DNA of 64,000 nt, from assembly GCA_001782035.1 (NCBI GenBank), contig MFNL01000001.1, forward strand, positions 148,078-212,077, given 5' to 3'. The DNA comes from Candidatus Levybacteria bacterium RIFCSPHIGHO2_01_FULL_37_17. GTDB taxonomy: Bacteria > Patescibacteriota > Microgenomatia > Levybacterales > UBA12049. This document shows positions 4,069 through 64,000 of this stretch, in pieces. The translations under genes were made by a program, and so were the position numbers. How positions within the stretch are numbered: the first letter of the stretch is position 1; each line of letters opens with the position of its first letter. The notes under the pieces are model-generated. The model searched no databases. It was not told the origin of the DNA and worked only from the letters and a program-made list of their open reading frames with translations.

Positions 4069-4908
4069 GTGAGAAAGATTCTATTTGTTTTTGGCTGTAT
4101 CCTTCTTGCCCTCCTTATTTTCTTTATCCTGGTATTCGTTGTAAATAAAAGACCTGAAAAAGGCGCTCTTCAGGTAACATCTTCTCCGGCATCAGAAGTT
4201 TACTTAAATGACAAACATATAGGAAAAACTCCGCTTTGTCTTTGCCAGGGAAATAATATGGTGGATGTTGGGGATTATACAATTAAATTAGTACCAACAA
4301 GCGGAGACTTTGAACCATTCCAGAATAAAATAACTGTCACACAAAAAATATTAACGGTCGTGGATAGAAGTTTTGCTCAAACAGCCTTAGCTCAAGCATC
4401 AATAATTACTCTTAAAGAAATAGAAGATAAAAAACAAGCACAGATTAGTATTGTTACTTTTCCATCGGGGGCTGATGCTTATCTTGATAATAATTTAGTC
4501 GGACACGCACCAATCTTACTTAAAAATGTAACAGAATCAGACCATGAAATAAAAGTTTCTAAATCCGGATATAAGGAAAAAAGTATAAGAGTAAGAGCAC
4601 TTTTAGGATATAGGCTTGATTCTATAATTTATTTGGGAGTAGACCCAAATGCCGCTGAGGAAAGTGAGCAAGAGGCAACTCCATCCGCATCTCTTACCAC
4701 CGGACAAAAATTAATAATTCAAGATACGCCAACGGGATTTCTACGAGTTAGAGAAACGCCATCTACAAGCGCAAATGAAGTTGGGAGAGTAAATCCGGGA
4801 GAAGAATATGAATTACTTGATGAGCAAAACGGTTGGTACCAAATAAAATTAAAAGACGGAAAGACAACAGGTTGGGTAAGCGGGCAATATGCTAAAAAGC
4901 AGGGCTAG
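4069..4908 (+). CDS. Membrane-anchored protein with two PEGA-like domains and a C-terminal bacterial SH3 (SH3b) domain
   Basis: The gene begins with a GTG start and an N-terminal TM helix. PEGA-like repeats are present (SSPASEVYLNDKHIGKTPL; SGADAYLDNNLVGHAPILL). An SH3b-like C-terminus follows (GFLRVRETPS…GWYQIKLKDGKTTGWVSGQY). Confidence 0.6.
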   Translation: MRKILFVFGCILLALLIFFILVFVVNKRPEKGALQVTSSPASEVYLNDKHIGKTPLCLCQGNNMVDVGDYTIKLVPTSGDFEPFQNKITVTQKILTVVDRSFAQTALAQASIITLKEIEDKKQAQISIVTFPSGADAYLDNNLVGHAPILLKNVTESDHEIKVSKSGYKEKSIRVRALLGYRLDSIIYLGVDPNAAEESEQEATPSASLTTGQKLIIQDTPTGFLRVRETPSTSANEVGRVNPGEEYELLDEQNGWYQIKLKDGKTTGWVSGQYAKKQG

Positions 4909-12635: not shown

Positions 12636-13256
12636 TTACTGGGGACAATTAAGTTGTTGTAGGCAAGCTATTTTACTATCTCCGGACAAATAGTTACATG
12701 TGCTGCAATTTGCACCTTCCCCTGACTTTGGAAGCGTATATGCTGAAAGGTCCATAAATTTAACATTTGAGGGTGGTGTAAATTTGTTATTATCTACTAA
12801 CCACGGAGAACATTTATAGTCTACTTTTTGGTTTACATCATAATATTGATTGAACTGCTCGTTGGTTTTTAGATCTTCTTCTTTTAAGGTCATTTTGAAC
12901 CCTGCTTCCATACCCGTTCCCCACATATAATTTACATCACCATCTCTTATTAGATAAAACATAGAAGTTTCCCCTTCTGTTTTAGTTGTTACATCTCCTC
13001 TCATCTTCTTTCCGGAGAAATAAAAAGTACCCGTTGTTGAAACATCAGACGTTGCATAAGTGAAATCGCATTTTTGATTTCCACCTTTTGCAAGAATACC
13101 CCAAAGATTAACGCTTGAAGTTTCCTGATCTGTTTTTGTAGGAGCTGGCGTTAAATTTGTTTCCTGCCCAGATTTGTTTTGTCCTAAAACTAGATACCCA
13201 CCGATTCCAAGGAGTATTAACACAACTACTATCGCACCAACTATTCTTGTATTCAT
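12636..13256 (-). CDS. Secreted or membrane-anchored Cys-rich hypothetical protein
   Basis: It has an N-terminal TM/signal anchor, and its C-terminal region holds 7 Cys. There is no recognisable family. Confidence 0.45.
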   Translation of the reverse strand: MNTRIVGAIVVVLILLGIGGYLVLGQNKSGQETNLTPAPTKTDQETSSVNLWGILAKGGNQKCDFTYATSDVSTTGTFYFSGKKMRGDVTTKTEGETSMFYLIRDGDVNYMWGTGMEAGFKMTLKEEDLKTNEQFNQYYDVNQKVDYKCSPWLVDNNKFTPPSNVKFMDLSAYTLPKSGEGANCSTCNYLSGDSKIACLQQLNCPQ

Positions 13257-13496
13257 AGGCTGATTTTATACCTGCATGAGTACTAAGTCAATAATATCTT
13301 TAAGTTACTTGACAAAAGGGAAGCGGTTGAGCACATAATAGAGTATGGCCAAAAAACAAAAGTCCAAATATAAGCATTTTCAACTGCACGGTAAGCATAC
13401 AAATCAAGAGGTATTTGTTTATATAGTAGTAGTTTTAACTATTTCTTTTTTGGTCGGAATCTTTCTTAAGTTTCAATTCCTGACCTTTGCTTCCCC

Positions 13497-19684: not shown

Positions 19685-19699
19685 TGGTATACTATTCTC

Positions 19700-20026
19700 A
19701 TGTGGAAGCTGCCCGTACTCATACTTAAATTTTGGTATTTTGAAGCTCCAGTTCTTCTTTTTGGGTATTTTTTAAATCTAAATAAGTCATTTTTTAATGC
19801 TTTTTCGCTTCCTCTTATGGTAAAAACGTTTTTTAAGCCATGGAAAAACGAATACAGGGAAGGACTAGTAAGATTTTCCATTATGATGGGTATTGCTTTC
19901 AAAACGCTATTTATTGCAGTCGATTTAGTCTTATTTTCGTTATTATTACTTTTTGAAATTACATTCTTTGTTGGGTTTCTTATTTTTCCACTTGTAATAT
20001 TTTATTTACCTTTTATTAAGTTATGA
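19700..20026 (+). CDS. Hypothetical small membrane protein
   Basis: It has three TM helices, and its stop overlaps the start of the Clp-like gene (ATGA). Confidence 0.4.
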   Translation: MWKLPVLILKFWYFEAPVLLFGYFLNLNKSFFNAFSLPLMVKTFFKPWKNEYREGLVRFSIMMGIAFKTLFIAVDLVLFSLLLLFEITFFVGFLIFPLVIFYLPFIKL

Positions 20027-28790: not shown

Positions 28791-28815
28791 ATCCTCATTA
28801 TGTTATCATTAAGCT

Positions 28816-29871
28816 ATGGATTCTGCCCAAACCCTAGATTTAGAATTAAATAAATTATCGGAAAAAGTAAAAAAAGCTTCTTTACCAGCTGATTTATTGG
28901 AAAAAGTAAATTCAATGTTGTCTCTTCTTTCAATAAGTTTAAAAACAGGTACAGGTAGTTTTATAAACTATCAGGTTACAGAAAATTATTTAAACTGGCT
29001 TTGTTCACTACCTTTCAATATAGAAACGCAAGAGAATTTAGATATCAACAAAGCTAAAGAAATTCTTGATAAAAACCATTATGGACTGACTTCTATAAAA
29101 GACACAATTCTTGAATATTTATCAACACTCATTTTAAACAAGCAAAACAATGTATCTGTGAACGCCCCAATTCTTTGCCTAGTTGGTCTAGTTGGTACAG
29201 GTAAAACAACTCTTGCTTATTCTATTGCAGAGGCCCTGGGTAGAAAATTTGAAAGAATTCCTTTTGGAGGACTTTCCGATTCCTTATCTTTAAGAGGCCA
29301 GTCTCGTGCATTTTCAGACGCAGAACCTGGACTTTTTATAAAAAAAATCGTACACGCCCAAAGCAAAAATTGCGTAATACTTTTGGATGAATTGGATAGA
29401 ATTGCAGAACACGCAAGAGCTGATGTTATGGGAGTTCTAATAGAAGCATTGGATAATGAACAAAATAAATCATTTGTAGATCACTATATTGATTATCCTT
29501 TTGACTTATCACATATTTTATTTATTGCGACAGCAAATAATACGTCAACCTTATCAACAGCGGTTTTGGATAGACTGGAAATAATTCAAATGCCTTCATA
29601 TAACGATGAGGAGAAGAAAACTATCGGAGAATTGTATTTATTCCCTAAAATAGTAAAAAATTCAGGTCTAGTTGAAAACCAGGTTATAATAGATGAGGCT
29701 TTATGGTCTACAATTATAAGACCTTTAGGCTACGATAGTGGCATTAGAAGTTTGGAAAGGACGCTGGAAAATTTAGCTAGAGGGGTTGCAAGAGAAATAG
29801 TTGAGGGAAAATTGCAAAAAAATGCAAGAATTAAAATAGACGAAAATAATATAAACAAATATTTAGATTAG
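28816..29871 (+). CDS. Lon-like AAA+ ATPase module without the N-terminal LAN domain or the C-terminal S16 protease domain
   Basis: The protein is colinear with the Lon central region. It has a helical segment (DKNHYGLTSIKDTILEYL), Walker A GLVGTGKTT, Walker B ILLDELD, and the Lon lid (LDRLEIIQMPSY…GIRSLER). It ends where the protease domain would begin. Confidence 0.8.
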   Translation: MDSAQTLDLELNKLSEKVKKASLPADLLEKVNSMLSLLSISLKTGTGSFINYQVTENYLNWLCSLPFNIETQENLDINKAKEILDKNHYGLTSIKDTILEYLSTLILNKQNNVSVNAPILCLVGLVGTGKTTLAYSIAEALGRKFERIPFGGLSDSLSLRGQSRAFSDAEPGLFIKKIVHAQSKNCVILLDELDRIAEHARADVMGVLIEALDNEQNKSFVDHYIDYPFDLSHILFIATANNTSTLSTAVLDRLEIIQMPSYNDEEKKTIGELYLFPKIVKNSGLVENQVIIDEALWSTIIRPLGYDSGIRSLERTLENLARGVAREIVEGKLQKNARIKIDENNINKYLD

Positions 29872-32679: not shown

Positions 32680-32809
32680 TTAGGAAATTATAGCAGAATT
32701 TGGAATTTTAACCTATAGTTTGCAAATTGAGGAAGATTGTAGTATAGTTTAATAATAAGTAGCTCTGGCTTAACTTGTAGAAGCTATATAAAGTACTTAT
32801 AATAAATAC

Positions 32810-34900
32810 ATGCCCAAAAGACATTATAGGAAGCAAAAATTTAAGATCAAACTTAAAAAAACTACGATTTATTCGATTTTTGCTTTTGGGATAATGTTGT
32901 CCGCAATACTTTTTGGCGCCTCCTTTACTAAAAATGGCCCATCTCTTGCTCTTATTAATGATTATTTAGATTATTATTTCGGGCGTTTCTCAATACTGCT
33001 TCCTTTAGTTTTGGTAATACTTGGTTTTTTCTTTTTAAAACTCAAATTCTATTTATCTAAACCAAATGCTACCATCGGTGCTCTTATTTTTTATTTATCG
33101 CTTCTTGGAATTTCAAAATCAGGCTTAGCAGGAATTACTCTAAATTCCTTAATTGCCGACGTTTTAGGAGGGTTTATCGCTTTTGCAATTTACGGCTTCG
33201 GCATAGTGGTTGGCTTAATTGTATTTTTCGATACCTCAATAGATGAAGTCATGCAAATTATTTCATCAATATTTTCTCTTATTCAAAAACTTTTGCCGGG
33301 GAGTTTTCTTTCATTTTTCAAAAAGAAGGAAATTCCAGCACTTTCAGATAAGCAGATGATTATTAAAGGAATGGAAGACAGAAACCCTAAGGATATAAAG
33401 ATAAATTCAAATTCTCCAAAAAAAGATGAACCATTAATTTCCGATAAGTTGGTTATGAATGTTCCCGGGAAAACAGGCGTGTGGCATCTTCCTCCTTTAG
33501 ATTTGCTTTCATCTGATGCTTCCCAAAAAGCTGATAGAGGAGACGTAAAAAAAATTGCAAGCAAGATTGAGGAAACATTACAAAGTTTTGGAATAGGTGC
33601 CAGGGTTGTTGAAGTCAATCAAGGACCCGCTGTTACTCAATATGCCCTGCAGATTCCTTTGGGCACAAAAGTCTCAAAAATAACAAATCTTTCAAACGAC
33701 ATCGCTCTAAATACGGAAGCACCGACCGGACAAATTAGGATTGAAGCGCCAATTCCTGGCAGAAATTTAATCGGAGTTGAGATACCAAACCGGAGTCTAG
33801 AAGTAGTAACACTAAGGACTATGCTAGCTAGTGAGGTAATGCGCAAGTCTAAATCGAAACTTGCTGTATCTTTAGGTCTAGACGTGTCAGGCAACCCGCT
33901 AATAGCAGATATCGGTAAAATGCCTCATGTTTTAGTTGCAGGAACTACAGGTTCGGGAAAGTCGGTTTTAATAAATTCATTTATTGCGTCGCTTCTTTTT
34001 AGAGCAACACCAGATGAGCTACGACTAATTATGATAGATCCTAAAAGAGTAGAGTTAACAGGATATAACGGCATCCCACATTTAATGACGCCTGTTATTG
34101 TTGAGGTCGATCAAATTTTAGCATCACTCAAATGGGCAATGGGAGAAATGGACAGAAGATACAAGACTTTTGCAGAACAAGGAGTAAGAAACATCGACTC
34201 CTATAACGAGCTTGCCGGTTTTCAAAGACTACCTTATATTGTAGTTTTTATAGATGAGTTAGCAGATTTAATGGCTTATGCACCGGTAGAGGTTGAAGAT
34301 GCGGTTGCAAGACTTGCCCAAATGGCGAGAGCGACAGGCATACATTTGGTTGTTTCTACACAGCGCCCAAGTGTGGATGTTATTACAGGACTTATAAAAG
34401 CAAATATTCCGGCAAGAATCGCATTTAACGTTTCATCCATGATTGATTCCAGGGTTATTATTGATATGCCCGGCTCAGAAAAATTATTAGGAAGAGGGGA
34501 CATGTTGTATATTCCACCTGACCAGGCAAAACCGACAAGAATCCAGGGTGCTTTCGTTTCCGAAAAAGAAGTAAGAAAACTGGTCGATTTCCTAAAAGCA
34601 GAAAATCCCCCGGTTGAATATACAGAGGAAGTTTTGGCTGAGCCGCTAGTTAAAAAAGGTGGTCATGGAACATCTGATGGAGCAAGGGATACATTATTTG
34701 AAGAAGCAGTTAGAATTGTCTGCCAGTATGATAGAGCTTCCGCATCACTGTTGCAAAGAAGACTTTCTATTGGATACTCCAGAGCTGCCAAAATTATAGA
34801 TCAGCTTGAGGAAGCAGGTTTAATAGGAAGAGCTGACGGAAGCAAACCGCGAGATGTACTCATTAGAGATCCAGAGGAATTTCTTGCCAATTTGCAATAA
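32810..34900 (+). CDS. ftsK: DNA translocase FtsK/SpoIIIE
   Basis: It has an N-terminal membrane domain, Walker A AGTTGSGKSV, Walker B VVFIDELADL, and a C-terminal gamma wHTH (LLQRRLSIGYSRAAKIIDQLEEAGLIG). Confidence 0.93.
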   Translation: MPKRHYRKQKFKIKLKKTTIYSIFAFGIMLSAILFGASFTKNGPSLALINDYLDYYFGRFSILLPLVLVILGFFFLKLKFYLSKPNATIGALIFYLSLLGISKSGLAGITLNSLIADVLGGFIAFAIYGFGIVVGLIVFFDTSIDEVMQIISSIFSLIQKLLPGSFLSFFKKKEIPALSDKQMIIKGMEDRNPKDIKINSNSPKKDEPLISDKLVMNVPGKTGVWHLPPLDLLSSDASQKADRGDVKKIASKIEETLQSFGIGARVVEVNQGPAVTQYALQIPLGTKVSKITNLSNDIALNTEAPTGQIRIEAPIPGRNLIGVEIPNRSLEVVTLRTMLASEVMRKSKSKLAVSLGLDVSGNPLIADIGKMPHVLVAGTTGSGKSVLINSFIASLLFRATPDELRLIMIDPKRVELTGYNGIPHLMTPVIVEVDQILASLKWAMGEMDRRYKTFAEQGVRNIDSYNELAGFQRLPYIVVFIDELADLMAYAPVEVEDAVARLAQMARATGIHLVVSTQRPSVDVITGLIKANIPARIAFNVSSMIDSRVIIDMPGSEKLLGRGDMLYIPPDQAKPTRIQGAFVSEKEVRKLVDFLKAENPPVEYTEEVLAEPLVKKGGHGTSDGARDTLFEEAVRIVCQYDRASASLLQRRLSIGYSRAAKIIDQLEEAGLIGRADGSKPRDVLIRDPEEFLANLQ

Positions 34901-56062: not shown

Positions 56063-56154
56063 ACTTAATTAACTGGAGATTGTTCACGCCACACATAATA
56101 ATAAACACTTAATTTTTGACTTACTCAATATATACTAGTATACTTGGAACAACA

Positions 56155-56478
56155 ATGCCAAGAGTTTCTAATACGTCAATTAGCAATGAGTTTAGAATTA
56201 AAATTGATAAGGCACTACCTGTAATAATAGTCTCTTTAAGAGACAAATCTGAAACTGCGGATTTCTATAGAAACTTTCTGACTTCTGAAGAACAAATAAT
56301 GATGGGAAAAAGACTCGTTCTTTACGTACTTTTATATAAGGGATATCCATTTAAGCAGATAAAAGAATTCTTGGGAATGAGTTTCGAGGCGATTCGTTTT
56401 CATAAATCAAATTGGTTAAAAATGGAAAAGGGAGCAAAAAACCTAATCAAACGCCTCGCGGAAAAATTATTCTCATGA
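56155..56478 (+). CDS. TrpR-like YerC/YecD-family DNA-binding protein
   Basis: It has the pattern FLTSEEQIMMGKRLVLYVLLYKGYPFKQIKEFLGMSFEAIRFHKSNWLK (TrpR/YerC HTH). The first ATG at 56155 is preceded by TTGACT-N17-TATACT, and the ORF-track TTG start at 56116 coincides with the -35 box. Confidence 0.6.
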   Translation: MPRVSNTSISNEFRIKIDKALPVIIVSLRDKSETADFYRNFLTSEEQIMMGKRLVLYVLLYKGYPFKQIKEFLGMSFEAIRFHKSNWLKMEKGAKNLIKRLAEKLFS

Positions 56479-57023
56479 AAAAGTTTTATGCAAAAAATAG
56501 AACCAATTGGCGGCGGTGGCTTTCCAAAAACCACGATAAAGAAAAAGAAGTCTGGCTTATATTTTACAAAAAAGCCTCAGGAAAACCCGGTGTAGGCTAT
56601 AACGATGCAGTAGAAGAAGCACTTTGTTTTGGATGGATAGATTCAATAGTTCACGCAAATAATGATGAAAGTCGCGTACAAAGATTTAGTCCAAGAAATC
56701 TAAAAAGCAACTGGTCAGAGTTGAATCGAGAAAGAGCCCGAAGACTTATTGCAAAAAAGCTTATGACACCTGCAGGTTTAAAATTGCTACCGGCGGATTT
56801 GGACAACGTCAAATATGAAATAGCAAACGAAATAGCACAAGCGTTAAAAAAGGATAAAGAGGTTTGGCAGAATTTCCAAAAATTCGACGACTTATATAAA
56901 AGAATTAGAATTGCTTATATATGGGAAGCATATAAACAAAAAAGATTTGATGAATTTAATCGGCGATTAAAGTCTTTCATAAAAGCAACAAAGAAAAACC
57001 GCAAAATCGGAACGATATTATAG
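56475..57023 (+). CDS. YdeI/OmpD-associated (OmdA, DUF1801-like) family protein
   Basis: It matches the YdeI family (WRRWLSKNHDKEKEVWLIFYKKASGKPGVGYNDAVEEALCFGWIDS…QRFSPRNLKSNWSELNRERARRLIAKKLMTPAGL). The ATG at 56475 overlaps the upstream stop (ATGA). Confidence 0.75.
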   Translation: MKKFYAKNRTNWRRWLSKNHDKEKEVWLIFYKKASGKPGVGYNDAVEEALCFGWIDSIVHANNDESRVQRFSPRNLKSNWSELNRERARRLIAKKLMTPAGLKLLPADLDNVKYEIANEIAQALKKDKEVWQNFQKFDDLYKRIRIAYIWEAYKQKRFDEFNRRLKSFIKATKKNRKIGTIL

Positions 57024-57084
57024 AATTCCAACTTGAATTATGTTATAATTTTTGAGCTCCGGAGAGGAGTTTTTTTAAGCCCTT

Positions 57085-59214
57085 ATGGCACAAGAAGATA
57101 GAATTAAAACATTAGACAAGGTTAGAAATATTGGCATTATTGCCCATATTGATGCGGGGAAAACAACAACAACCGAGCGTATTTTATTCTATACAGGAAA
57201 AACCTACAAAATCGGAGATATCGACGAAGGAAATACTCAAATGGACTGGATGGAACAGGAAAAAGAAAGGGGAATTACCATTGTGTCTGCAGCAACAACT
57301 GCTTTTTGGACCCATTCAAATTCTTCAGGGCAAGCAGATTCCTATAGAATAAATATTATTGATACACCGGGACACGTAGATTTTACCGCAGAAGTAGAGC
57401 GTTCGCTAAGAGTTCTCGATGGTGGCATCACGGTTCTTGATGCGGAAGAGGGAGTTCAATCTCAGTCTGAAACTGTTTGGAGGCAGGCTGATAAATACAA
57501 AGTTCCAAGGCTTTGCTTTGTTAACAAAATGGATAAACTTGGGGCGGATTTTCTGGCTACTATAAAATCAATTGAGGAAAGACTCGGCGCAAATCCTGCA
57601 ATTATGGTTTTACCAATTGGAGTTGAGAGCTCATTTGTCGGGATAGTGCACCTAATGGAAATGAAAGCGTATATTTGGAAAAATGACAATCTTGGAGCGG
57701 AATTTGAAATCACTGATATACCGCAGGATATGAAAGCCCAAGCTCAAAAATACAGGCAAAAATTAGTTGAGAAAATTGCAGAAACAGATGACTCACTCAC
57801 TGATAAATTTTTGCACGGACAACAAATTAATGATGAGCAGTTAAAACAAGCTCTAAGACGAGCCGTTATTGCATACAAACTCGTACCTATTTTTGCGGGA
57901 AGCTCACTGCGCAATAAAGGAGTCCAACCCTTACTAGACGCAGTCGTAGATTATTTGCCTTCCCCTCTGGATGTTGGCAAAATTGTTGGAACAGATCCCA
58001 AAACTGGAGAAGACGTACAAAGACTTCCTCAAGCGGAACAACCTTTGGCGGGCCTTGCATTTAAAATCCAAATTGATCCACACGTTGGAAAATTGACTTA
58101 TTTTAGAGTTTATAGTGGAAAAGTAACTGCCGGATCTTATATTTATAACAGTTCTAAAAATGAAAATGAGAGAATTGGCAGAATTTTACTCATGCACGCA
58201 AACCATAGAGAAGAAATTAAAGAGGCTTATGCTGGGGAAATTGTAGCTTTGGTTGGCCTTAAAGACACGGCAACTGGAGATACTTTATCCGATGAAAAAG
58301 CCCCAATTGTTTTGGAAAAAATTTCATTTCCCGAACCTGTTATTTCCTTGGCAATTGAACCAAAAACAAAAGCAGACCAGGAAAAATTAGGCCTCGCTTT
58401 AAAGCGGCTTTCGGAAGAAGATCCAACATTTTCTATTAAAGCAAATCACGAAACAGGACAAACAATAATTTCCGGGATGGGAGAGCTGCAGCTTGAGGTT
58501 ATGGTAGATAGAATGAAGCGGGAATTTGGAGTTTTGGCAAATGTCGGAGCACCACAAGTTGCCTACAAAGAGACAGTAAAACAAATCGCCGAAGGCGAAG
58601 GAAAATATATCAGACAATCCGGTGGTCGAGGACAATATGGACACTGTTTCCTTAGAGTTGAGCCAAAACCAAGAGGTGAAGGCTACGAATTTATCAATGC
58701 CATTAAAGGGGGAGCAATTCCTTCTGAGTTTGTAATTTCTATTCAAAAAGGAGTAAAAGAGACAATGGAAAACGGCATATTACTCGGCTATCCGCTTGTA
58801 GATATGAATGTTACAGTATATGACGGAAGTTATCACGAAGTAGACAGTAGTGACGTGGCTTTTAAAATTGCAGCATCTCAAGCATTGCAGGCTGCAGCAA
58901 AAAAAGCTCAGCTTAGTTTACTTGAACCTATTATGAAAGTTGAAGTTACAACTCCAAGCGAGTTTATGGGAGATGTAATCGGAGATTTGAGTGCAAAAAG
59001 AGCACAAATATTAGGAACGGAAGAAAGAGGAAAGGCAACTGTAGTTTTGGCAATGGTTCCGCTTGCGGAGCTTTCCGGTTATGCAACAACTTTAAGGTCG
59101 ATGTCTCAGGGTCGAGCTTCTTACTATATGGAGCCCTCTCATTACGAAGATGTTCCTCAAAATATAGTGGCACAAATGCTTGCTAAATCCACCTTTACCG
59201 GAAGAGTCGAGTAA
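57085..59214 (+). CDS. fusA: Elongation factor G
   Basis: The G domain ([27 protein letters not shown]) and domains II to V are present. The length is 709 aa. Confidence 0.97.
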
Positions 59215-59220
59215 ATCCCC

Positions 59221-59249
59221 TTGACATTTAGCTTCTTACTTTCTAATCT
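59221..59249 (+). promoter_or_regulatory. Promoter TTGACA-N17-TAATCT, 8 nt upstream of the ATG of the 156-aa ORF
   Basis: Read directly from the sequence. The ORF-track entry 59221..59421 begins at the TTG of this -35 box and is probably spurious. Confidence 0.5.
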
Positions 59250-59257
59250 ATTATTAG

Positions 59258-59728
59258 ATGGCTGTTGCCAGAGAAAGACTGGTTCAAGCGCTCGAAAAAA
59301 CCGGTGTAAAAGAAACCGGAATACCCATTTCTTCAATTTTTACCTCAAGAAGATATCACAGAGCCGAAGAAGAAGCAAAAAGCGGATTTGGTGTGTCAAA
59401 TTGGAGTGGAGCTTATTATGATCATTTAAGAAGACTTGTTGACGGATCCTACGTTCTTGATAGAGGAGACGGATATTTGAGTACAACGCAAGAAATCCAA
59501 AAAGAAACCGACTCAGCTTTTATAAACGGCAAAATTAGAACGACCATTTTAATAGCTAGAACAATGCAATCCGGAAACACTTTTAAAGTTGTCCAAAGGT
59601 ACACCGAGTTACTTCCGGATGGGAAAAGAGGTGCTGTTGTTAGAGAAGAAGCGATGGCTTATTTCATTGGTGAAGAAGCTAGATTAAGAGCAATGGAACT
59701 TTCAGCCGAATATATCCGCGGCAGATAA
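59258..59728 (+). CDS. Hypothetical protein (156 aa) inserted between fusA and tuf
   Basis: It is a clean ORF with its own promoter and no recognisable family. It is soluble with no TM segment. Confidence 0.5.
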   Translation: MAVARERLVQALEKTGVKETGIPISSIFTSRRYHRAEEEAKSGFGVSNWSGAYYDHLRRLVDGSYVLDRGDGYLSTTQEIQKETDSAFINGKIRTTILIARTMQSGNTFKVVQRYTELLPDGKRGAVVREEAMAYFIGEEARLRAMELSAEYIRGR

Positions 59729-59774
59729 TCAACATCCTTGAAACAAAATAACAATAATCGCGTTTAATTAATAA

Positions 59775-60128
59775 ATGACAACTAGAACGTTATTGCCGAT
59801 ATCATTTCTGGTTAATCTCGTATTTTCTTTAATCGAGCTTTCTTTGGGTATCAGAATTATTTTAAAACTGTTTGCGGCAAATCCAGGAACGCCGTTTGTC
59901 GATTGGATGTATAATGCAACTTCACCCTTGCTTGCTCCTTTCAACGGAATTTTTCCAAATCCAACACTGCGAGGCGGTTCGGTTTTAGAAATGCAGACTT
60001 TAATTGCGCTTTTGGTTTATGGCTTTATCGCATATCTTATTACCTATTTAGTTGATTATTTAAATGCAAGAATGATTGATACAGACTCAGAAACAGAAGA
60101 AAGAGTAGTTGTGCGGAAAAGAAGATAG
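59775..60128 (+). CDS. YggT-family membrane protein
   Basis: It has the YggT pattern (…RIILKLFAANPGTPFVDWMYNATSPLLAPFNGIFPN…) and two TM regions. Confidence 0.65.
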   Translation: MTTRTLLPISFLVNLVFSLIELSLGIRIILKLFAANPGTPFVDWMYNATSPLLAPFNGIFPNPTLRGGSVLEMQTLIALLVYGFIAYLITYLVDYLNARMIDTDSETEERVVVRKRR

Positions 60129-60151
60129 ACTCATTTGATATACTAAATTGA

Positions 60152-60709
60152 GTGAGTCATTTAAAATCCTTTAAATATAAAAACATCCTCGGGGCAATTA
60201 TCGGGATAACACTTGCTCTAATACTATCCCGCTTTGAGCTTTTCCATGCCTTTCTTTTAAATCTTGGTGATTTAGGCTATTTAGGCGCTTTTATCGCGGG
60301 GATTTTATTTGTGAATGTATTTACAGTCGCAACCGGAGCTATTATGCTTTTAGTTTTAGCCGAAAGCCTGAACCCAATTGAGCTTGCGGTCATTGCGGGT
60401 TTAGGCGCAGTATTAGGTGATTTTTTAATTTTCAAATTTGTAAAAGACACATTGTCTTTAGAAATTACTGATATTTATAACCACTTCGGCGGGGATCACT
60501 TATCAAAATTATTACATACAAGGTATTTCAGCTGGACTCTGCCCGTAATAGGCGCACTGATTATTGCATCCCCTTTGCCCGATGAAGTTGGAGTAAGCCT
60601 TTTGGGGATTTCTAAGATGAGTACTTTCAAATTCGTTATTTTGGCCTTTTTGCTTGATTTTATAGGCATATTTCTAGTAGTTTCAGCCTCTGTCTTTATT
60701 AAACCTTAA
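60152..60709 (+). CDS. Hypothetical polytopic membrane protein (185 aa, GTG start)
   Basis: It has five or six predicted TM helices and no recognised family. Confidence 0.45.
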   Translation: MSHLKSFKYKNILGAIIGITLALILSRFELFHAFLLNLGDLGYLGAFIAGILFVNVFTVATGAIMLLVLAESLNPIELAVIAGLGAVLGDFLIFKFVKDTLSLEITDIYNHFGGDHLSKLLHTRYFSWTLPVIGALIIASPLPDEVGVSLLGISKMSTFKFVILAFLLDFIGIFLVVSASVFIKP

Positions 60710-60782
60710 ATTCCTACTTGACTAAGCTGAGAAAGTAATGTATATTAAATTGACCTTAAAGAGGTATTTTTTTTGCTTTAAT

Positions 60783-61964
60783 ATGCCAGATAAATTTGAA
60801 AGAACTAAGCCACACGTAAATATTGGAACCATTGGCCACGTAGACCACGGTAAAACAACGCTAACCGCAGCTATTGCTACTGTTTTGTCAAAAAGCGGTA
60901 AGGCAACAGCCAAAAAGTACGAAGACATCGACAACGCTCCGGAAGAAAAAGCAAGAGGAGTTACAATCAACATCTCCCACATTGAATACGAAACAGACAA
61001 ACGCCATTATGCCCATATAGACGCACCGGGACACGCGGATTACATTAAGAACATGATCACAGGAGCTGCCCAAATGGACGGCTCAATTCTTGTAGTTTCA
61101 GCCCCCGACGGCCCCATGCCACAAACAAGAGAGCACATTTTACTAGCAAGACAAGTAGGAGTTCCTGCAATTGTAGTTTTTCTTAATAAGACTGATATGG
61201 TACAAGATGCGGAACTTTTGGACTTGGTGGAAATGGAAGTAAGAGAGCTTCTTACAAAGTATCAATATCCGGGAGGCGACGTGCCTATTATTCGAGGAAG
61301 TGCTCTTAAGGCTTTGGAAGGCGATGCGGAAGCTGAAAAGCAAATCTTGGCCTTAATGGATGCAGTTGATACTTATATCCCAACGCCTACAAGGGATACA
61401 GAAAAACCGTTCTTAATGCCTGTTGAGGACGTTTTCTCAATTAAAGGACGAGGAACAGTTGTAACAGGAAGAATTGAAAGAGGAAAGGTTAAAGTAAACG
61501 AGGCAGTAGAAATTGTCGGAATTAAAGCTACAAAGCAGTCCGTTGTAACAGGTGTTGAGATGTTTAGGAAACTCTTAGACGAAGGACAAGCAGGAGACAA
61601 TGTCGGATTACTGCTTCGCGGAGTTGAAAAAGCAGATGTTGAAAGAGGACAAGTTATCGCAAAGCCAGGCTCGATTACGCCCCACAAAGAATTTGAAGCG
61701 GAGGTCTACATCCTTACAAAGGAAGAAGGCGGACGACATACACCATTCTTTACAGGATACAGACCTCAATTCTTTATTAGAACAACCGATGTAACAGCTG
61801 AAGTGGCTCTTCCATCCGGAGTAGAAATGGTAATGCCAGGAGACAATACAAAAATGACAGTAAAGCTTATCGTTCCAGTTGCAATGGAAGAAGGACTACG
61901 TTTTGCAGTAAGAGAAGGCGGAAAAACTGTTGGAGCAGGAGTTATCTCCAAAATAATCGCTTAA
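60783..61964 (+). CDS. tuf: Elongation factor Tu
   Basis: The EF-Tu sequence begins [31 protein letters not shown]. The ATG at 60783 is chosen over the longer ORF-track start. Confidence 0.97.
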
Positions 61965-62030
61965 GTCTGCCTCTTTTAGTCCGCCTAGGCTCGGCCTAGT
62001 CGAGACTGGCTCTTTGATTTAAATACACAT

Positions 62031-62339
62031 ATGCCAAAAGGGAGAATTAGAGTAAAACTCAAAAGTTACGACGCGAGAGTAATAGACTCTACCTGTCAGC
62101 AAATTTTAGATACGGCAATAAGAACCGGTGCTAAAGTTGTTGGACCAATCCCACTTCCTAGTAAAAGAAGCGTATATGCGGTAAATAAATCACCTTTTAT
62201 AGACAAAAACGCACGAGACCACTTTCAAATCAAAATCCACAAAAGACTCATAGATATAATTTCACCCACAGAAAAAACAATTGATTCCCTAACGCATCTC
62301 GAGCTTCCCGCAGGTGTAAACATCGAAATCAGAATGTAA
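62031..62339 (+). CDS. rpsJ: 30S ribosomal protein S10
   Basis: It is a 102-aa protein of the S10 family ([38 protein letters not shown]). It is followed by unrelated genes rather than the ribosomal-protein genes rplC-rplD that normally follow it. Confidence 0.95.
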
Positions 62340-62340
62340 T

Positions 62341-62369
62341 TTGACAAGCCAATATGTCGGTCATATAAT
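62341..62369 (+). promoter_or_regulatory. Perfect sigma70-type promoter TTGACA-N17-TATAAT, 6 nt before the ATG of ORF 62376 (leaderless)
   Basis: Read directly from the sequence. It lies immediately after the rpsJ stop. Confidence 0.6.
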
Positions 62370-62375
62370 CACCTC

Positions 62376-62765
62376 ATGATAGAAAAAATACTCAGAGTTC
62401 AACGAGCAGAAACTAATACCCAAGCCGCAAGAAGATTTTTAAATATTCAAGATGAAGCCAATAGAAAACGAGTATACAGAAAAAATATTCCATGGCAAGC
62501 AGCCTGGTTTCCTCACGAAGGAGATGCTGGTTTAAACGGACTCGTAGATAAAGTTAGCAAAGGACCAAGTATCAGAAGAGAAATTGTTCTTTTTGATAGA
62601 ATCAAACTACCTTTTTCTGAAAAGAGAAGACCAAAAGAGGAATGGGGCCAGCGCCGTCATGATAGACACGATCATTTTAAATATTTTGAACCTCAGACCT
62701 CTTATAATAATTCTGGAATATCCAGGCGGCTAATCCGATCTGCCCGTGCAATAAATAATAGTTAG
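62376..62765 (+). CDS. Hypothetical basic protein (129 aa), first gene of the rpsJ-downstream insertion module
   Basis: It begins MIE…, is Arg/His-rich (RRHDRHDHFKYF), and has no recognised family. Confidence 0.5.
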   Translation: MIEKILRVQRAETNTQAARRFLNIQDEANRKRVYRKNIPWQAAWFPHEGDAGLNGLVDKVSKGPSIRREIVLFDRIKLPFSEKRRPKEEWGQRRHDRHDHFKYFEPQTSYNNSGISRRLIRSARAINNS

Positions 62766-62793
62766 TTACCTCGATCTAGAACTTAATTTCTGC

Positions 62794-62799
62794 TATAAT
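62794..62799 (+). promoter_or_regulatory. Extended -10 (TGcTATAAT) 6 nt before the ATG of ORF 62806; paralogous to the 5' region of the upstream gene
   Basis: The stretch TATAAT-CRCCTC-ATG-ATW-GAA is shared by both genes of the module. Confidence 0.5.
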
Positions 62800-62805
62800 C
62801 GCCTC

Positions 62806-63327
62806 ATGATTGAAGCTCCAGTAGGGAACGAAATAGCTGAAAGATATCCTCAAGTCAAAAAAGTTTTAGAATGGTTTGTCCCAGAAGGCGAGCCCAAATT
62901 CGCGGCAGACCTTCAACTAAATGTTAGACATTTCTTTAATTCAATGTATTTTCACCATGCATCTTTCTGGAAAGAAAATTATGACTTAGAAATATTACCT
63001 GAAAACCAAGCTATCCAAATTGCGAGAGATATGATTTTGCAAGTGACTAGAATATCAGAAGAAAATGGTCCAAACAGAGCAGCCGCCAAGGAGGCTATAG
63101 CGGGAGGACACGGAGTAGAGTTACTGTTTCAAACTGACGGTGGTTTTAATGGGATAGACGACAGAAAAACAAATTTATACCAATTTTTAGGAGTTGCGAG
63201 TCTAATTGGAATTGCACTTAAATCCAAAGAAGTTAAATTAGACTTCTATTTGAAATATGGAATCGATAGCTTAGCAAGGTCTATCCCATACAGAACATAT
63301 AGAGAAAAAAATTCCCCGCAGGTGTAA
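62806..63327 (+). CDS. Hypothetical protein (173 aa), second gene of the rpsJ-downstream module; its last codons lie in the duplicated rpsJ 3' end
   Basis: It begins MIE…, has no recognised family, and its stop codon lies inside the 33-bp repeat. Confidence 0.5.
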   Translation: MIEAPVGNEIAERYPQVKKVLEWFVPEGEPKFAADLQLNVRHFFNSMYFHHASFWKENYDLEILPENQAIQIARDMILQVTRISEENGPNRAAAKEAIAGGHGVELLFQTDGGFNGIDDRKTNLYQFLGVASLIGIALKSKEVKLDFYLKYGIDSLARSIPYRTYREKNSPQV

Positions 63328-63347
63328 ACATCGAAATCAGGATGTAA
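63315..63347 (+). repeat. 33-bp direct repeat of the rpsJ 3' terminus (CCCGCAGGTGTAAACATCGAAATCAGGATGTAA), 32/33 identical to 62307..62339
   Basis: Direct comparison of the two copies shows the second is followed by another TTGACA promoter. Confidence 0.85.
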
Positions 63348-63358
63348 GAGTCCTATAG

Positions 63359-63387
63359 TTGACAACTCTAACCAATTCTGGTAGAAT
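63359..63387 (+). promoter_or_regulatory. Promoter TTGACA-N17-TAGAAT, 9 nt upstream of ORF 63397
   Basis: Read directly from the sequence. Confidence 0.5.
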
Positions 63388-63396
63388 TCCACTCAT

Positions 63397-63660
63397 ATGA
63401 CAATTGAAGCTACAGAAAAACGATATTTTGGATTAAAAAGAAATACCAGAGCTGTCTCACCCGGAGGATTTTTTCTCGATCCCTTGGTTATTATAGTAGT
63501 ATCACCAGACGAAATTGTGCTTACAATAGCTGTAGGGCTTGATTTTCCAGTGTTTCTTCCCCCAAGAAGGTTATTTAAAGAACAGATAAACGAGTTTTTT
63601 AAATCAGATATTCCCGGAAACTCGATAGGTTCAAGGGTCCGTTTAAGTTGGAAACCCTAA
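63397..63660 (+). CDS. Hypothetical small protein (87 aa)
   Basis: It is an ORF with its own promoter, a hydrophobic central segment, and no recognised family. Confidence 0.35.
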   Translation: MTIEATEKRYFGLKRNTRAVSPGGFFLDPLVIIVVSPDEIVLTIAVGLDFPVFLPPRRLFKEQINEFFKSDIPGNSIGSRVRLSWKP

Positions 63661-63661
63661 A

Positions 63662-64000
63662 ATGACAGTTAGAAAGTCGCGTCAAACGCGATTCAAAATA
63701 ATTCAGGCGGGAGACCCGAGGCTTAAAGCTAAAAATAAGCTAATCAAAGACATTAATTCCCCAAAAACAAAAAAGCTTATTAAAGATTTGATCGCTACAA
63801 TGTACAAAGCCGAGTTAATCGGTATTGCAGCCAGCCAAATCGGCGAAAATCATATGGTTTTTGTTACTCACCCAAGGAAAACAAAAGCTAGAAAACTTGG
63901 AAAAATCGATAAACTTCGAATATATATAAACCCGAAAATAACTTTCAGCTCAAAAGTCCAAAATTTAATATACGAAGGCTGTGGAAGTGTTTCGGACTTT
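63662..64000 (+). CDS. def: Peptide deformylase, N-terminal part (continues beyond the window)
   Basis: A manual translation from ATG 63662 gives MTVRKSRQTRFKIIQAGDPRLKAKNK…GIAASQIG…EGCGSVSDF. This matches PDF motif I (GxGxAAxQ) and motif II (EGCLS). The ORF is open to the window end and is absent from the ORF track. Confidence 0.7.
   Translation, partial: MTVRKSRQTRFKIIQAGDPRLKAKNKLIKDINSPKTKKLIKDLIATMYKAELIGIAASQIGENHMVFVTHPRKTKARKLGKIDKLRIYINPKITFSSKVQNLIYEGCGSVSDF

Follow-up and report, generated by a model that had tools for sequence, protein, structure and literature searches.

Downstream of the ribosomal protein S10 gene (rpsJ) of Candidatus Levybacteria RIFCSPHIGHO2_01_FULL_37_17, a CPR bacterium, the last 33 nt of the gene occur a second time, about 1 kb away and untranslated. 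With about even confidence, we read this second copy (63315–63347 of the 64,000-nt stretch of DNA that was analysed, here called the window) as a recombination scar at a hotspot of horizontal exchange, with neither an autonomous element nor a toxin–antitoxin (TA) or defence gene pair involved. The features of the region are the following:

60780..61964, + strand: tuf (EF-Tu), with Pfam GTP_EFTU domains; opens the tuf–rpsJ unit
62031..62339, + strand: rpsJ (ribosomal protein S10), intact, 102 aa; Pfam Ribosomal_S10, E 2.5e-32
62307..62339, + strand: first copy of the 33-mer, the working rpsJ 3' end (last 10 codons plus stop)
62341..62369, + strand: consensus promoter TTGACA-17-TATAAT (12/12), starting 2 nt past the rpsJ stop
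62364..62384, + strand: first copy of a 21-nt promoter/start module (TATAAT-CACCTC-ATG-ATA-GAA)
62376..62765, + strand: ORF129, a species-specific orphan, very basic (pI 10.9) and hydrophilic
62794..62814, + strand: second copy of the 21-nt promoter/start module, the true ORF173 start
62806..63327, + strand: ORF173, its last 4–5 codons and stop inside the relic 33-mer
63315..63347, + strand: relic, the second copy of the 33-mer; an rpsJ 3' end that is displaced and not translated
63359..63387, + strand: near-consensus promoter TTGACA-17-TAGAAT (with TG; 11/12), 11 nt past the relic
63397..63660, + strand: ORF87, an orphan
63662..64000, + strand: def (peptide deformylase), cut by the window end; Pfam Pep_deformylase, E 7.6e-20

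On the source contig, the gene order is rpsJ, ORF129, ORF173, ORF87, def, ORF170 and then rplC-rplD-rplW-rplB and the rest of the cluster. The original prediction that the S10 operon is broken here does not hold: rplC-rplD resume 2.6 kb past rpsJ, just beyond the window, and the apparent break arises because the window ends at 64000. The rplC gene is preceded by a promoter of its own and by a conserved leader that contains a terminator-like hairpin (no Rfam match was found in the leader); this places the interval between rpsJ and rplC, hereafter the slot, between transcription units.

The 33-mer CCCGCAGGTGTAAACATCGAAATCAGAATGTAA at 62307–62339 recurs at 63315–63347 with 32/33 identity, as had been claimed, and these two matches in the window compare with a chance expectation of 0.00 (100 shuffles). 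Allowing a 1-nt indel lengthens the match by 2 nt (TT) on the left; on the right, identity ends exactly at the stop codon. The only difference, AGA>AGG, does not alter the amino acid encoded in the S10 frame. The relic, which is recognized by an rpsJ-tail profile (nhmmer, E 2.8e-7 to 3.8e-9), lies in the −1 frame relative to ORF173, lacks a start codon of its own and has its S10 frame closed by a TAG 14 codons upstream of the stop. With an S10-frame 3' end and stop and the remainder of the gene absent, it qualifies as a truncated rpsJ pseudogene fragment. After both stops, identity falls at once from 97% in the 33-mer to background, and the promoter spacers behind the two copies are unalignable (3/16 matches; −35 offsets of 1 and 11 nt). 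Alignability ending at the stop codon is expected for two alleles, with conserved coding ends and different neighbours; a segmental duplication, which had been offered as another origin, is a poor fit to similarity that ends there.

Both copies are spanned by at least five independent contigs from different projects, with 0–2 SNPs, which rules out an assembly artefact. Neither copy gave a fold signal (z 0.18 and 0.61), no Rfam match was found in 60700–64000, and the window contains no tRNA or tmRNA as a target. A phage origin was rejected, as viral contigs contained no relatives of ORF129 or ORF173 and no copy of the 33-mer. We found no paper describing integration at the rpsJ 3' end.

Among relatives, the slot is variable, with tuf as its conserved left flank (77–95% identical in all of them). 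In 160 related loci, rpsJ and rplC lie between 54 nt and 3.8 kb apart. The slot contains only the rplC leader of roughly 130 nt in about half of these loci, and the rest carry unrelated cargo (His_Phos, racemase, FtsJ, NUDIX, Fic, PIN and YafQ toxins, MGMT, GNAT, def and others), with def directly behind rpsJ in L022 and L023. Judged from these comparisons, the slot is a hotspot in Levybacteria at which accessory genes turn over fast by horizontal exchange among related lineages. Horizontal-transfer hotspots flanked by core genes were reportedly described by Oliveira and colleagues in 2017. The slot resembles these in its fixed position and its lineage-specific, unrelated accessory content, including toxin–antitoxin genes and orphans; it differs in lying inside the str/S10 ribosomal cluster and in having its boundaries marked by relic gene ends, and we know of no description of such boundaries within this cluster for known hotspots.

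That the genes between the 33-mers are not core genes was borne out, and the footprint recurs in relatives (see below). ORF129 has no homologue among 5.8e9 proteins, the 160 related loci or viral contigs, and its codon usage is host-like in frame 0 only. ORF173 has only three homologues among 1.8–5.8 billion proteins, and all four members of its family come from the rpsJ–rplC slot of Levybacteria. Structure prediction, proposed earlier as a check, yielded an all-helical ORF173 and no match to a known fold. Searches of Pfam, PHROGs, PADLOC, NCBIfam and PDB returned no match for ORF129, ORF173, ORF87 or ORF170; for ORF87 and ORF170, the searches gave no family, structure or homologue. One PADLOC match (E 0.014 over 32 residues) was judged to be noise. 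A type II TA or defence module, as had been suggested, is not supported: there are no recognizable domains and no conserved gene pair, and ORF173 needs no ORF129 partner, its homologues in L178, L179 and L180 standing alone in the slot without an ORF129-like gene. Nor do the two ORFs appear to form one unit, ORF129 being better read as a separate, nested insertion.

This reading of ORF129 starts from the shared 5' module, which proved real: TATAATCRCCTCATGATWGAA at 62364–62384 and 62794–62814 is 19/21 identical, against 0.01 expected. The first three codons of ORF129 are those of the duplicated ORF173 start module. The two proteins are not paralogues (phmmer E about 4–6), and in their DNA the gene bodies show no more likeness than shuffled sequence does. 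That ORF129 might be a frameshifted duplicate of ORF173 was rejected, with nothing alike beyond the 5' module. We read ORF129 as a probable 430-nt insertion nested in the ORF173 promoter/start module, with the 21-nt duplication at its flanks.

A TTGACA promoter does follow each rpsJ terminus, as had been noted, and the two best sigma-70 matches within 59–64 kb stand behind the two 33-mers (12/12 and 11/12 consensus positions). The promoter at 62341–62369 has a leaderless layout (N6 and then ATG) and occupies the same position as the one driving ORF173 homologues in L178 and L179, where TTGACA-N17/18-TATAAT-N6-ATG and the homologue follow 1–3 nt past the rpsJ stop. The promoter at 63359–63387 is predicted to drive ORF87-def-ORF170.

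Displaced rpsJ 3' ends were found in about nine loci (L098, L107, L111, L115 [two], L127, L129, L086, L035 and L041), with differing cargo and a spacing of 0–790 nt. Identity between a relic and its own working rpsJ end goes down to 21/30. Summed over the rpsJ relics and restricted to the core of the last 10 codons plus stop, 33 of the codon changes are synonymous (stop-to-stop included) and 3 are non-synonymous. Differences that are almost only synonymous indicate that the rpsJ relics were functional S10 ends of diverged alleles. L064 and L035 each carry a relic of the tuf tail, both 24 nt long, and these show 8 synonymous-type and 2 non-synonymous differences. Eight of the about nine rpsJ relics are 29–38 nt long, with a left edge at the near-palindromic CCNGCNGG (Pro-Ala-Gly codons).

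Compared with the window, rpsJ of L098 is a mosaic (94% identity over nt 1–254 and 64% over nt 255–309; Fisher p 1.8e-8), the S10 proteins sharing 99% aa identity, and the foreign tract in it begins 22 nt or more before the left edge of the relic. L115 holds an array of working end, 53-nt GC-rich spacer, second copy, a gene designated geneX and a decayed third copy. The geneX–relic junction is common to L098 and L115; relics can thus travel with cargo, which blurs the distinction between native and incoming copies. In a comparison of identities meant to test for horizontal transfer of geneX between these two loci, geneX was 81.9% identical in nucleotides, equal to rpsJ. No Rfam match was found in the L086 insert.

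Under the account that we prefer, a DNA segment would have been inserted directly ahead of the resident rpsJ end, bringing its own rpsJ 3' end, a consensus promoter and an ORF173-family gene, as arranged in L178 and L179. S10 would have been kept intact; ORF173 would have lost its own stop and so terminate inside the relic; and the old rpsJ end, together with its former neighbours (promoter, ORF87, def and ORF170), would have been displaced 1 kb downstream. A second event in the same style may have placed the ORF129 body behind the leaderless ORF173 start; a 21-nt stretch that runs from the −10 box through codon 3 would have been duplicated, leaving ORF129 with a borrowed promoter and start. 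In the joining step, rpsJ homology probably provided the anchor, and short-homology or illegitimate recombination completed the joint; candidate routes following DNA uptake are a Campbell-type single crossover and homology-facilitated illegitimate recombination, and a dedicated integrase is probably not responsible. The tuf relics, and a 21-nt duplication that lies away from a gene end, speak for recombination of such a general kind and against an att site specific to rpsJ. Differing at only 1 nt, the two 33-mers of the window give no direct sign of which is incoming or whether either is foreign; we infer the resident one, as we do the order of events and the enzymology. No donor of the inserted segment was found.

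Homology-facilitated illegitimate recombination and short-homology Campbell-type insertion after DNA uptake are said to have been reported in 2002 by de Vries and Wackernagel and by Prudhomme and colleagues. The slot agrees with these in that a conserved gene (rpsJ or tuf) anchors one end, the other end is joined through short microhomology (TTCC at the window joint, in a GC-rich patch of an AT-rich gene), and the outcome is a mosaic gene end with foreign cargo. In the published cases known to us, recipient DNA is deleted more often than duplicated, whereas the joints here leave a duplication of 21–54 nt and cluster near one codon triplet.

The clustering invites a different, rather unlikely reading, in which an attachment site lies at the rpsJ 3' end, around CCNGCNGG, and the 33-mers are attL and attR: small circles with an rpsJ end and cargo would be integrated by a recombinase acting in trans (Xer-like, another tyrosine recombinase or a serine recombinase), making the 1-kb module a non-autonomous CIME-like or integron-/pdif-like cassette and the L115 arrays a product of accretion. 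A regenerated gene and a direct repeat of its 3' end together form the classic footprint of att integration. Relics recur with varied cargo, and a defined recombination site would predict their clustered left edges, although the clustering may instead reflect long repeats lost by homologous recombination and short ones undetected. The reading is also consistent with the L115 array of rpsJ ends, with tiny, cassette-like cargo such as the PIN module between the rpsJ ends of L127, and with tail pairs that, at 21/30, are too unlike for a RecA crossover within the tail. However, no integrase or recombinase appears in the cargo or, for about 100 slot ORFs and the genes of the 64-kb window, among the listed Pfam families (the best 25 families per scan, so that a weak recombinase match could escape), and none of the 160 loci has an insert with an integrase at the rpsJ end among those families. 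The cargo ends beside relics show no conserved motif or inverted repeat, the 33-mers show no RNA or DNA structure signal, and the footprint also occurs at tuf and at the promoter/start module. The L098 tract, which starts upstream of the relic edge, points to two junctions and not one conservative crossover point. Presence/absence polymorphism was not seen either: the listed contigs with the exact ORF173, S10 or ORF87 protein (the best 10 of 23, 8 of 19 and 10 of 24, respectively) are all occupied, and no relative was found in which rpsJ leads directly into the ORF87 region, the arrangement that the check proposed earlier was to look for. A wider form of the same idea is unlikely, namely that Levybacteria, and perhaps other CPR bacteria, possess an undescribed gene-capture system in which a trans recombinase inserts small units, from tens of bases up to about 1 kb in length, that carry the 3' end of a highly expressed translation gene (rpsJ or tuf), at a defined site about 25–35 nt before the stop; this would build cassette arrays in the ribosomal gene cluster like an integron/pdif platform, with the 33-mers as attL and attR.

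Two further explanations were considered. A tandem duplication in situ, running from rpsJ nt 277 to the ORF173 3' end, with the second promoter and ORF173 copy mostly replaced or deleted, seems quite unlikely to us; its remnants would be the 33-mer, the same-position promoter and the first ORF173 codons at the ORF87 start. The 32/33 match between the copies, both of clade-native type (29–30/33 to the L098 relic), suits it, as do the TTGACA promoter and the start followed by ATT GAA behind each copy, the 12/13 match of ORF87 codons 3–7 (ATTGAAGCTACAG) to the ORF173 5' end and the reading of ORF173 into the second 33-mer, which is the expected joint. Yet the 97% identity is confined to the 33-mer, and unalignable flanks beyond the consensus hexamers, next to 33 nt at 97%, are incompatible with one recent event; the ORF87 body is unlike the ORF173 family in every frame (ORF87 as a decayed ORF173 was rejected, with nothing alike beyond the 5' module); and relics elsewhere that differ at up to 9/30 positions, all synonymous, would be left unexplained. 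A function for the second copy itself is very improbable, whether as an ORF173 extension reached by a −1 frameshift on GA_A_AAA_AAT (an S10 C-terminal mimic) or as a cis element (an UP-like region or processing site for the next promoter). The relic does sit precisely in the −1 frame, preceded by an A7 run of the type X_XXY_YYZ in the correct register, the L098 relic follows in frame right after the geneX stop codon, relics retain S10 frame and stop with almost only synonymous differences, and the two strongest promoters of the region each stand behind a 33-mer. Against this, the frame relation varies, being −1 in the window and in frame past a stop in L098, while L086, L107, L111 and L129 lack an ORF altogether; L115 has the orthologous relic in a decayed state (ATG>ATA, loss of the stop); such a tail is missing from the ORF173 homologues of L178, L179 and L180; no stimulatory structure follows the A-run; and the distance from relic to next promoter varies.

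Known mobile systems offer partial parallels to the scar that we favour. Integration into the 3' ends of rpsI, rplL, rpmE and rpmG is documented (e.g. IMESag-rpsI), as are accretion and CIMEs that keep attL and attR without an integrase (PMC5704250). Like ICEs, IMEs and islands at ribosomal-gene 3' ends, the window has a direct repeat of the target end bounding the insert and a target that stays intact via an incoming replacement end, and tandem accretion can give arrays. Unlike them, the window and related slots have no integrase, relaxase or excisionase among the families listed; slot cargo is 0–1 kb, compared with 5–100 kb for ICEs and IMEs, with no conserved ends and no evidence of excision or an empty site; and the footprint extends to tuf and the promoter/start module. 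The claim of an insertion footprint is thus upheld insofar as insertion or replacement left a displaced rpsJ end with S10 intact, and the integrase-type element attached to it is unsupported. A direct repeat is present, and a small integrative element would lack an integrase or recombinase of its own or adjoining it, an empty-site allele and conserved ends; for a CIME, no autonomous element was found at the same att site in the 160 loci or viral contigs. To our knowledge, no such family of elements at ribosomal-gene ends is known from CPR bacteria.

Integron arrays and pdif modules resemble the slot in having short, mostly single-gene units of miscellaneous function in one orientation at one site with a repeated boundary. 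They differ from it in that no attC-like folded site, IntI or dif-like XerC/D half-sites were recognized in the slot, the 33-mers giving no fold signal, the boundaries no inverted repeat and the families listed no integrase, and in that slot cassettes carry their own strong promoters, unlike the usually promoterless integron cassettes. Mobile ORFs at atp6 of Allomyces, in fungal mitochondria, reportedly carry a replacement 3' end of the host gene, as Paquin and colleagues are said to have described in 1994. There, too, a foreign C-terminal coding end comes in and the native end stays downstream, untranslated; unlike those insertions, whose site specificity comes from a homing endonuclease, the genes between the 33-mers gave no nuclease domain.

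The ribosomal cluster is intact, with a gene-turnover slot between two of its transcription units, and the repeat is most likely a scar. If the joints were site-specific, they would represent a new kind of cassette platform in CPR bacteria. In lineages with leaderless genes, orphan or new genes may gain expression by landing behind a duplicated promoter/start module, as ORF129 appears to have done. Relic gene ends whose differences are nearly all synonymous provide a simple marker of horizontal replacement at conserved gene ends. The marker can be scanned for and is of use with the reduced genomes of uncultivated organisms, for which evidence of gene flow is difficult to obtain.

The last 33 nt of rpsJ, the gene for ribosomal protein S10, comprise its 10 final sense codons and the stop (62307-62339) and recur at 63315-63347 with a sole mismatch (AGA>AGG) that is synonymous in the S10 frame. 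These two matches in the window, versus 0.00 expected from 100 dinucleotide-preserving shuffles, confirm the 33-bp duplication reported in the original prediction. On the right, the similarity ends exactly at the rpsJ stop codon; if a 1-nt indel is allowed, it reaches 2 nt further left. Five or more independent contigs, from separate metagenome projects, span both copies (0–2 SNPs), and an assembly artefact was therefore excluded as the source of the second copy, hereafter called a relic (a displaced gene end, as distinct from the working end of the intact gene). The promoters claimed behind the two termini are likewise borne out, being the top two sigma-70 consensus matches between 59 and 64 kb.

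62307-62339, plus strand, 33-mer copy 1, end of rpsJ
62341-62369, promoter after copy 1, sigma-70 consensus 12/12
62376-62765, plus strand, ORF129
62806-63327, plus strand, ORF173
63315-63347, 33-mer copy 2, the relic
63359-63387, promoter after copy 2, sigma-70 consensus 11/12
63397-63660, plus strand, ORF87
63662-64000, plus strand, def, cut by the window end

The source metagenome-assembled genome (MAG) is from Rifle groundwater, and its 251-kb contig reads rpoC, rpsL, rpsG, two inserted ORFs, fusA, three inserted ORFs, tuf, rpsJ, ORF129, ORF173, ORF87, def, ORF170, rplC, rplD, rplW, rplB, and the rest of the cluster; the arrangement is repeated in a second MAG (GCA_001782495.1). Since rplC, rplD, rplW, and rplB are present past ORF170, the S10 cluster is unbroken, and the suggestion of a broken operon is refuted: the window stops within def. 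Additionally, rplC is served by a promoter of its own (CTTGCA-N17-TATAAT) and by a conserved leader (about 120 nt), with a hairpin and U-run immediately 5′ of the start codon, so that the rpsJ–rplC interval (the slot) lies between two transcription units. The leader element was found in every relative examined, including all short-gap loci; it carries a GGAGGTGAT box, its hairpin is terminator-like (fold z −2.9), identity among relatives is 70–87%, and an Rfam search returned no match. It resembles an attenuator or autoregulatory leader, so far undescribed, of the rplC-led ribosomal operon of Levybacteria. Examples follow (L-numbers denote loci fetched from relatives, L001 being the source contig).

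L001, 11973-12127, rplC leader element, about 780–930 nt past the window end
L178, 4031-4157, rplC leader element
L179, 1073-1227, rplC leader element

Non-ribosomal inserts also occupy further str-cluster junctions (window 56116-60709), namely two ORFs at rpsG–fusA, one of them DUF8412, and three at fusA–tuf (156 aa, YggT, and 185 aa); no repeat of at least 18 nt with >90% identity was found at these two junctions. The tuf–rpsJ gap varies among relatives, up to 2.9 kb. In the window, this spacer (61965-62030) is unusually GC-rich (GTCTGCCTCTTTTAGTCCGCCTAGGCTCGGCCTAGTCGAGACTGG) for a 37% GC genome, and conservation in L098 is confined to its last 22 nt.

The slot itself is hypervariable. In an S10-anchored set of 160 loci (80 from species-representative genomes, 80 from metagenome contigs), rplC lies 54 nt to 3.8 kb past the rpsJ stop; in roughly half, the leader stands alone, and the remainder hold one to six genes, mostly unrelated between loci. 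Pfam families listed for about 100 slot ORFs include histidine phosphatase, racemase, FtsJ, PCMT, NUDIX, Fic, MGMT, GNAT, PIN and YafQ/HigB toxins, CopG antitoxin, glycosyltransferases, adenylate kinase, deformylase, Cass2, and glyoxalase, with no integrase or transposase among them. In two loci (L022 and L023), def lies directly 3′ of rpsJ. No relatives of ORF129, ORF173, ORF87, or ORF170 were found in the 160 loci; all four have host-like GC and codon usage in their own frame only and thus look like real genes.

Exhaustive HMMER searching of 1.84 billion cluster representatives yielded three relatives of ORF173 (46, 34, and 37% identity); a profile run against 5.8 billion proteins brought no further ones. 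All three are encoded in the rpsJ–rplC slot:

L178: tuf, rpsJ, ORF173 homologue, rplC leader
L179: rpsJ, ORF173 homologue, rplC leader
L180: ORF173 homologue immediately 5′ of the rplC leader

The homologue promoter in L178 and L179 is TTGACA-N17/18-TATAAT-N6-ATG, with TTGACA 1–3 nt past the rpsJ stop, a position matched exactly by the window promoter at 62341. The latter now reads into ORF129, and ORF173 is left with a −10 box only. Compared with P0003, the natural C-terminus of ORF173 falls at about the relic start, and its last 4–5 codons and stop are relic-derived.

A 21-nt repeat (TATAATCRCCTCATGATWGAA; 62364-62384 and 62794-62814; 19/21 identical versus 0.01 expected) spans the −10 box to codon 3 of ORF129 and ORF173. 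The repeat bears out the shared leaderless module proposed for these genes; past their first three residues the proteins are unalike (phmmer E about 4–6), and gene-body DNA likeness is not above shuffles. The repeat is most simply read as the mark of an insertion: the ORF129 body (about 410 nt) would have entered behind the leaderless ORF173 start, duplicating 21 nt and giving ORF129 a borrowed promoter and start codon. ORF129 encodes a hydrophilic, strongly basic protein (pI 10.9), for which no homologue was found anywhere. The start of ORF87 is a third partial copy of the ORF173 5′ end (ATTGAAGCTNCAG, 12/13), with an unrelated body. The leaderless layout, with the start exactly 6 nt past a TATAAT-like box, occurs at several other window genes, and neither tuf nor rpsJ is preceded by a visible Shine-Dalgarno sequence; leaderless starts may be widespread in this genome.

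13254-13268, minus strand, leaderless-layout site
19688-19702, leaderless-layout site
28804-28818, leaderless-layout site
32798-32812, leaderless-layout site
59763-59777, leaderless-layout site

Located with a profile of rpsJ 3′ ends, extra rpsJ ends follow the gene in the window, in L098 (the closest relative, with 99% S10 identity), and in L107, L111, L127, L129, L086, L115 (two extra copies), L035, and L041 (decayed copies in the last two). In the relatives, the relic lies 0 to about 790 nt past the rpsJ end, and the intervening DNA differs case by case:

L098: 135-aa leaderless gene, ‘geneX’
L107, L111, L115: GC-rich spacer, 42–53 nt
L129, L086: GC-rich non-coding DNA, 240–270 nt
L127: PIN-domain gene, minus strand

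Over the core of 10 S10 residues plus stop, relics differ from their own genome's working end by a total of 33 synonymous (stop-to-stop counted) and 3 non-synonymous changes, the lowest identity being 21/30. A duplicated piece drifting at random would accumulate mostly non-synonymous-type changes; the near-absence of these indicates that both ends diverged as real S10 ends in separate lineages and were later joined by recombination. The rpsJ gene is also mosaic, window and L098 being 94% identical over nt 1–254 and 64% over nt 255–309 (Fisher p 1.8e-8), with all differences synonymous. Older relics, namely the third copy in L115 and that in L035, have lost the ATG or stop, as non-functional scars should. 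Both L064 and L035 have a 24-nt tuf 3′-end relic 75 nt past the tuf stop, so the phenomenon is not rpsJ-specific; these relics depart from the working end by 8 synonymous-type and 2 non-synonymous changes, and the two working ends are closer to each other at synonymous sites than to their own relics.

In L064 and L035, the tuf relic follows a GC-rich hairpin element of roughly 75 nt with inverted ends (TCCCTCCAA...TTGGTGGGA), which is found directly after tuf or rpsJ stops in both orientations. No Rfam family matches it; candidate identities are a miniature repeated or mobile element and a terminator that moved with exchanged gene ends.

L064, 5459-5557, hairpin element
L035, 4899-4998, hairpin element
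L135, 2907-2980, hairpin element
L159, 1228-1300, minus strand, hairpin element
L157, 455-512, minus strand, hairpin element

The geneX family (135 aa, MDTPANPNQPPQDPF..., no Pfam match) starts 6 nt past a TATAAT abutting the rpsJ stop or relic and seems to be a second gene family tied to this position. The geneX–relic junction is common to L098 and L115, so relics can be inherited or transferred along with cargo.

L098, 4322-4729, geneX
L115, 3880-4287, geneX
L130, 4322-4732, geneX

In L127 (4310-5180), the PIN-domain gene that separates the rpsJ stop from a 54-nt relic, with a probable small partner ORF, is probably part of a toxin-antitoxin module; this toxin-antitoxin-type cargo, followed by a tandem repeat (AATATCTTGA x4), is in a position equivalent to ORF129–ORF173. 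The 266-nt L086 insert (4600-4865; a Patescibacteria single-cell genome) opens with a perfect terminator hairpin and has no ORF or Rfam match; its contig also has an inverted duplication, probably an amplification chimera.

Most likely, the incoming segment carried an rpsJ 3′ end, its following promoter, and an ORF173-family gene, as in L178 and L179, and would have met a putative resident rpsJ followed by a promoter, ORF87, def, and ORF170. The joint would lie just 5′ of the putative resident rpsJ end, at a TTCC microhomology; joining would have produced the 33-nt duplication and kept S10 intact, and ORF129 would have been added later by a second event in the same style. Our preferred route is recombination with its anchor in the conserved gene, finished by a short-homology or illegitimate joint, whether Campbell-type or by homology-facilitated illegitimate recombination following DNA uptake. 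Three observations speak for it: the same footprint occurs at rpsJ, tuf, and the promoter/start module; neither a recombinase, among the Pfam families listed, nor conserved cargo ends turned up; and the L098 foreign tract starts at least 22 nt 5′ of the relic edge, so that the two junctions are not a single conservative crossover. The original prediction of an insertion footprint regenerating the gene end, with non-core genes, therefore holds; a self-contained small integrative element is not upheld, with no recombinase among the Pfam families listed and no conserved cargo ends, and neither is the toxin-antitoxin reading of ORF129–ORF173.

The main fact against the favoured joining model is the clustering of relic lengths: most rpsJ relics measure 29–38 nt, from a near-palindromic CCNGCNGG, and both tuf relics 24 nt. 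A defined recombination site would explain this, as would survivorship, with long repeats removed by homologous recombination and short ones undetected. A trans-mobilised att cassette, CIME-like (PMC5704250), is an unlikely source. In-situ tandem duplication with later overwriting is still less probable, as all similarity is gone directly past the stop codon. A functional role for the second 33-mer, whether by −1 frameshifting on GA_A_AAA_AAT or as an element associated with the promoter, is very improbable: frame relations are not conserved, the sequence decays in L115, other ORF173 family members have no such tail, and there is no structure at the site. Within 63306-63347, an A7 run directly before the relic does have the correct −1 register, and a shift there would end ORF173 with residues identical to the last 10 of S10; since no stimulatory structure was found and the layout is not conserved, it is probably coincidence.

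The present case is a variant of two known phenomena, the duplication of gene ends where DNA inserts and hotspots of horizontal transfer. Its relic-tail signature is seen repeatedly among Levybacteria and marks two different translation genes.
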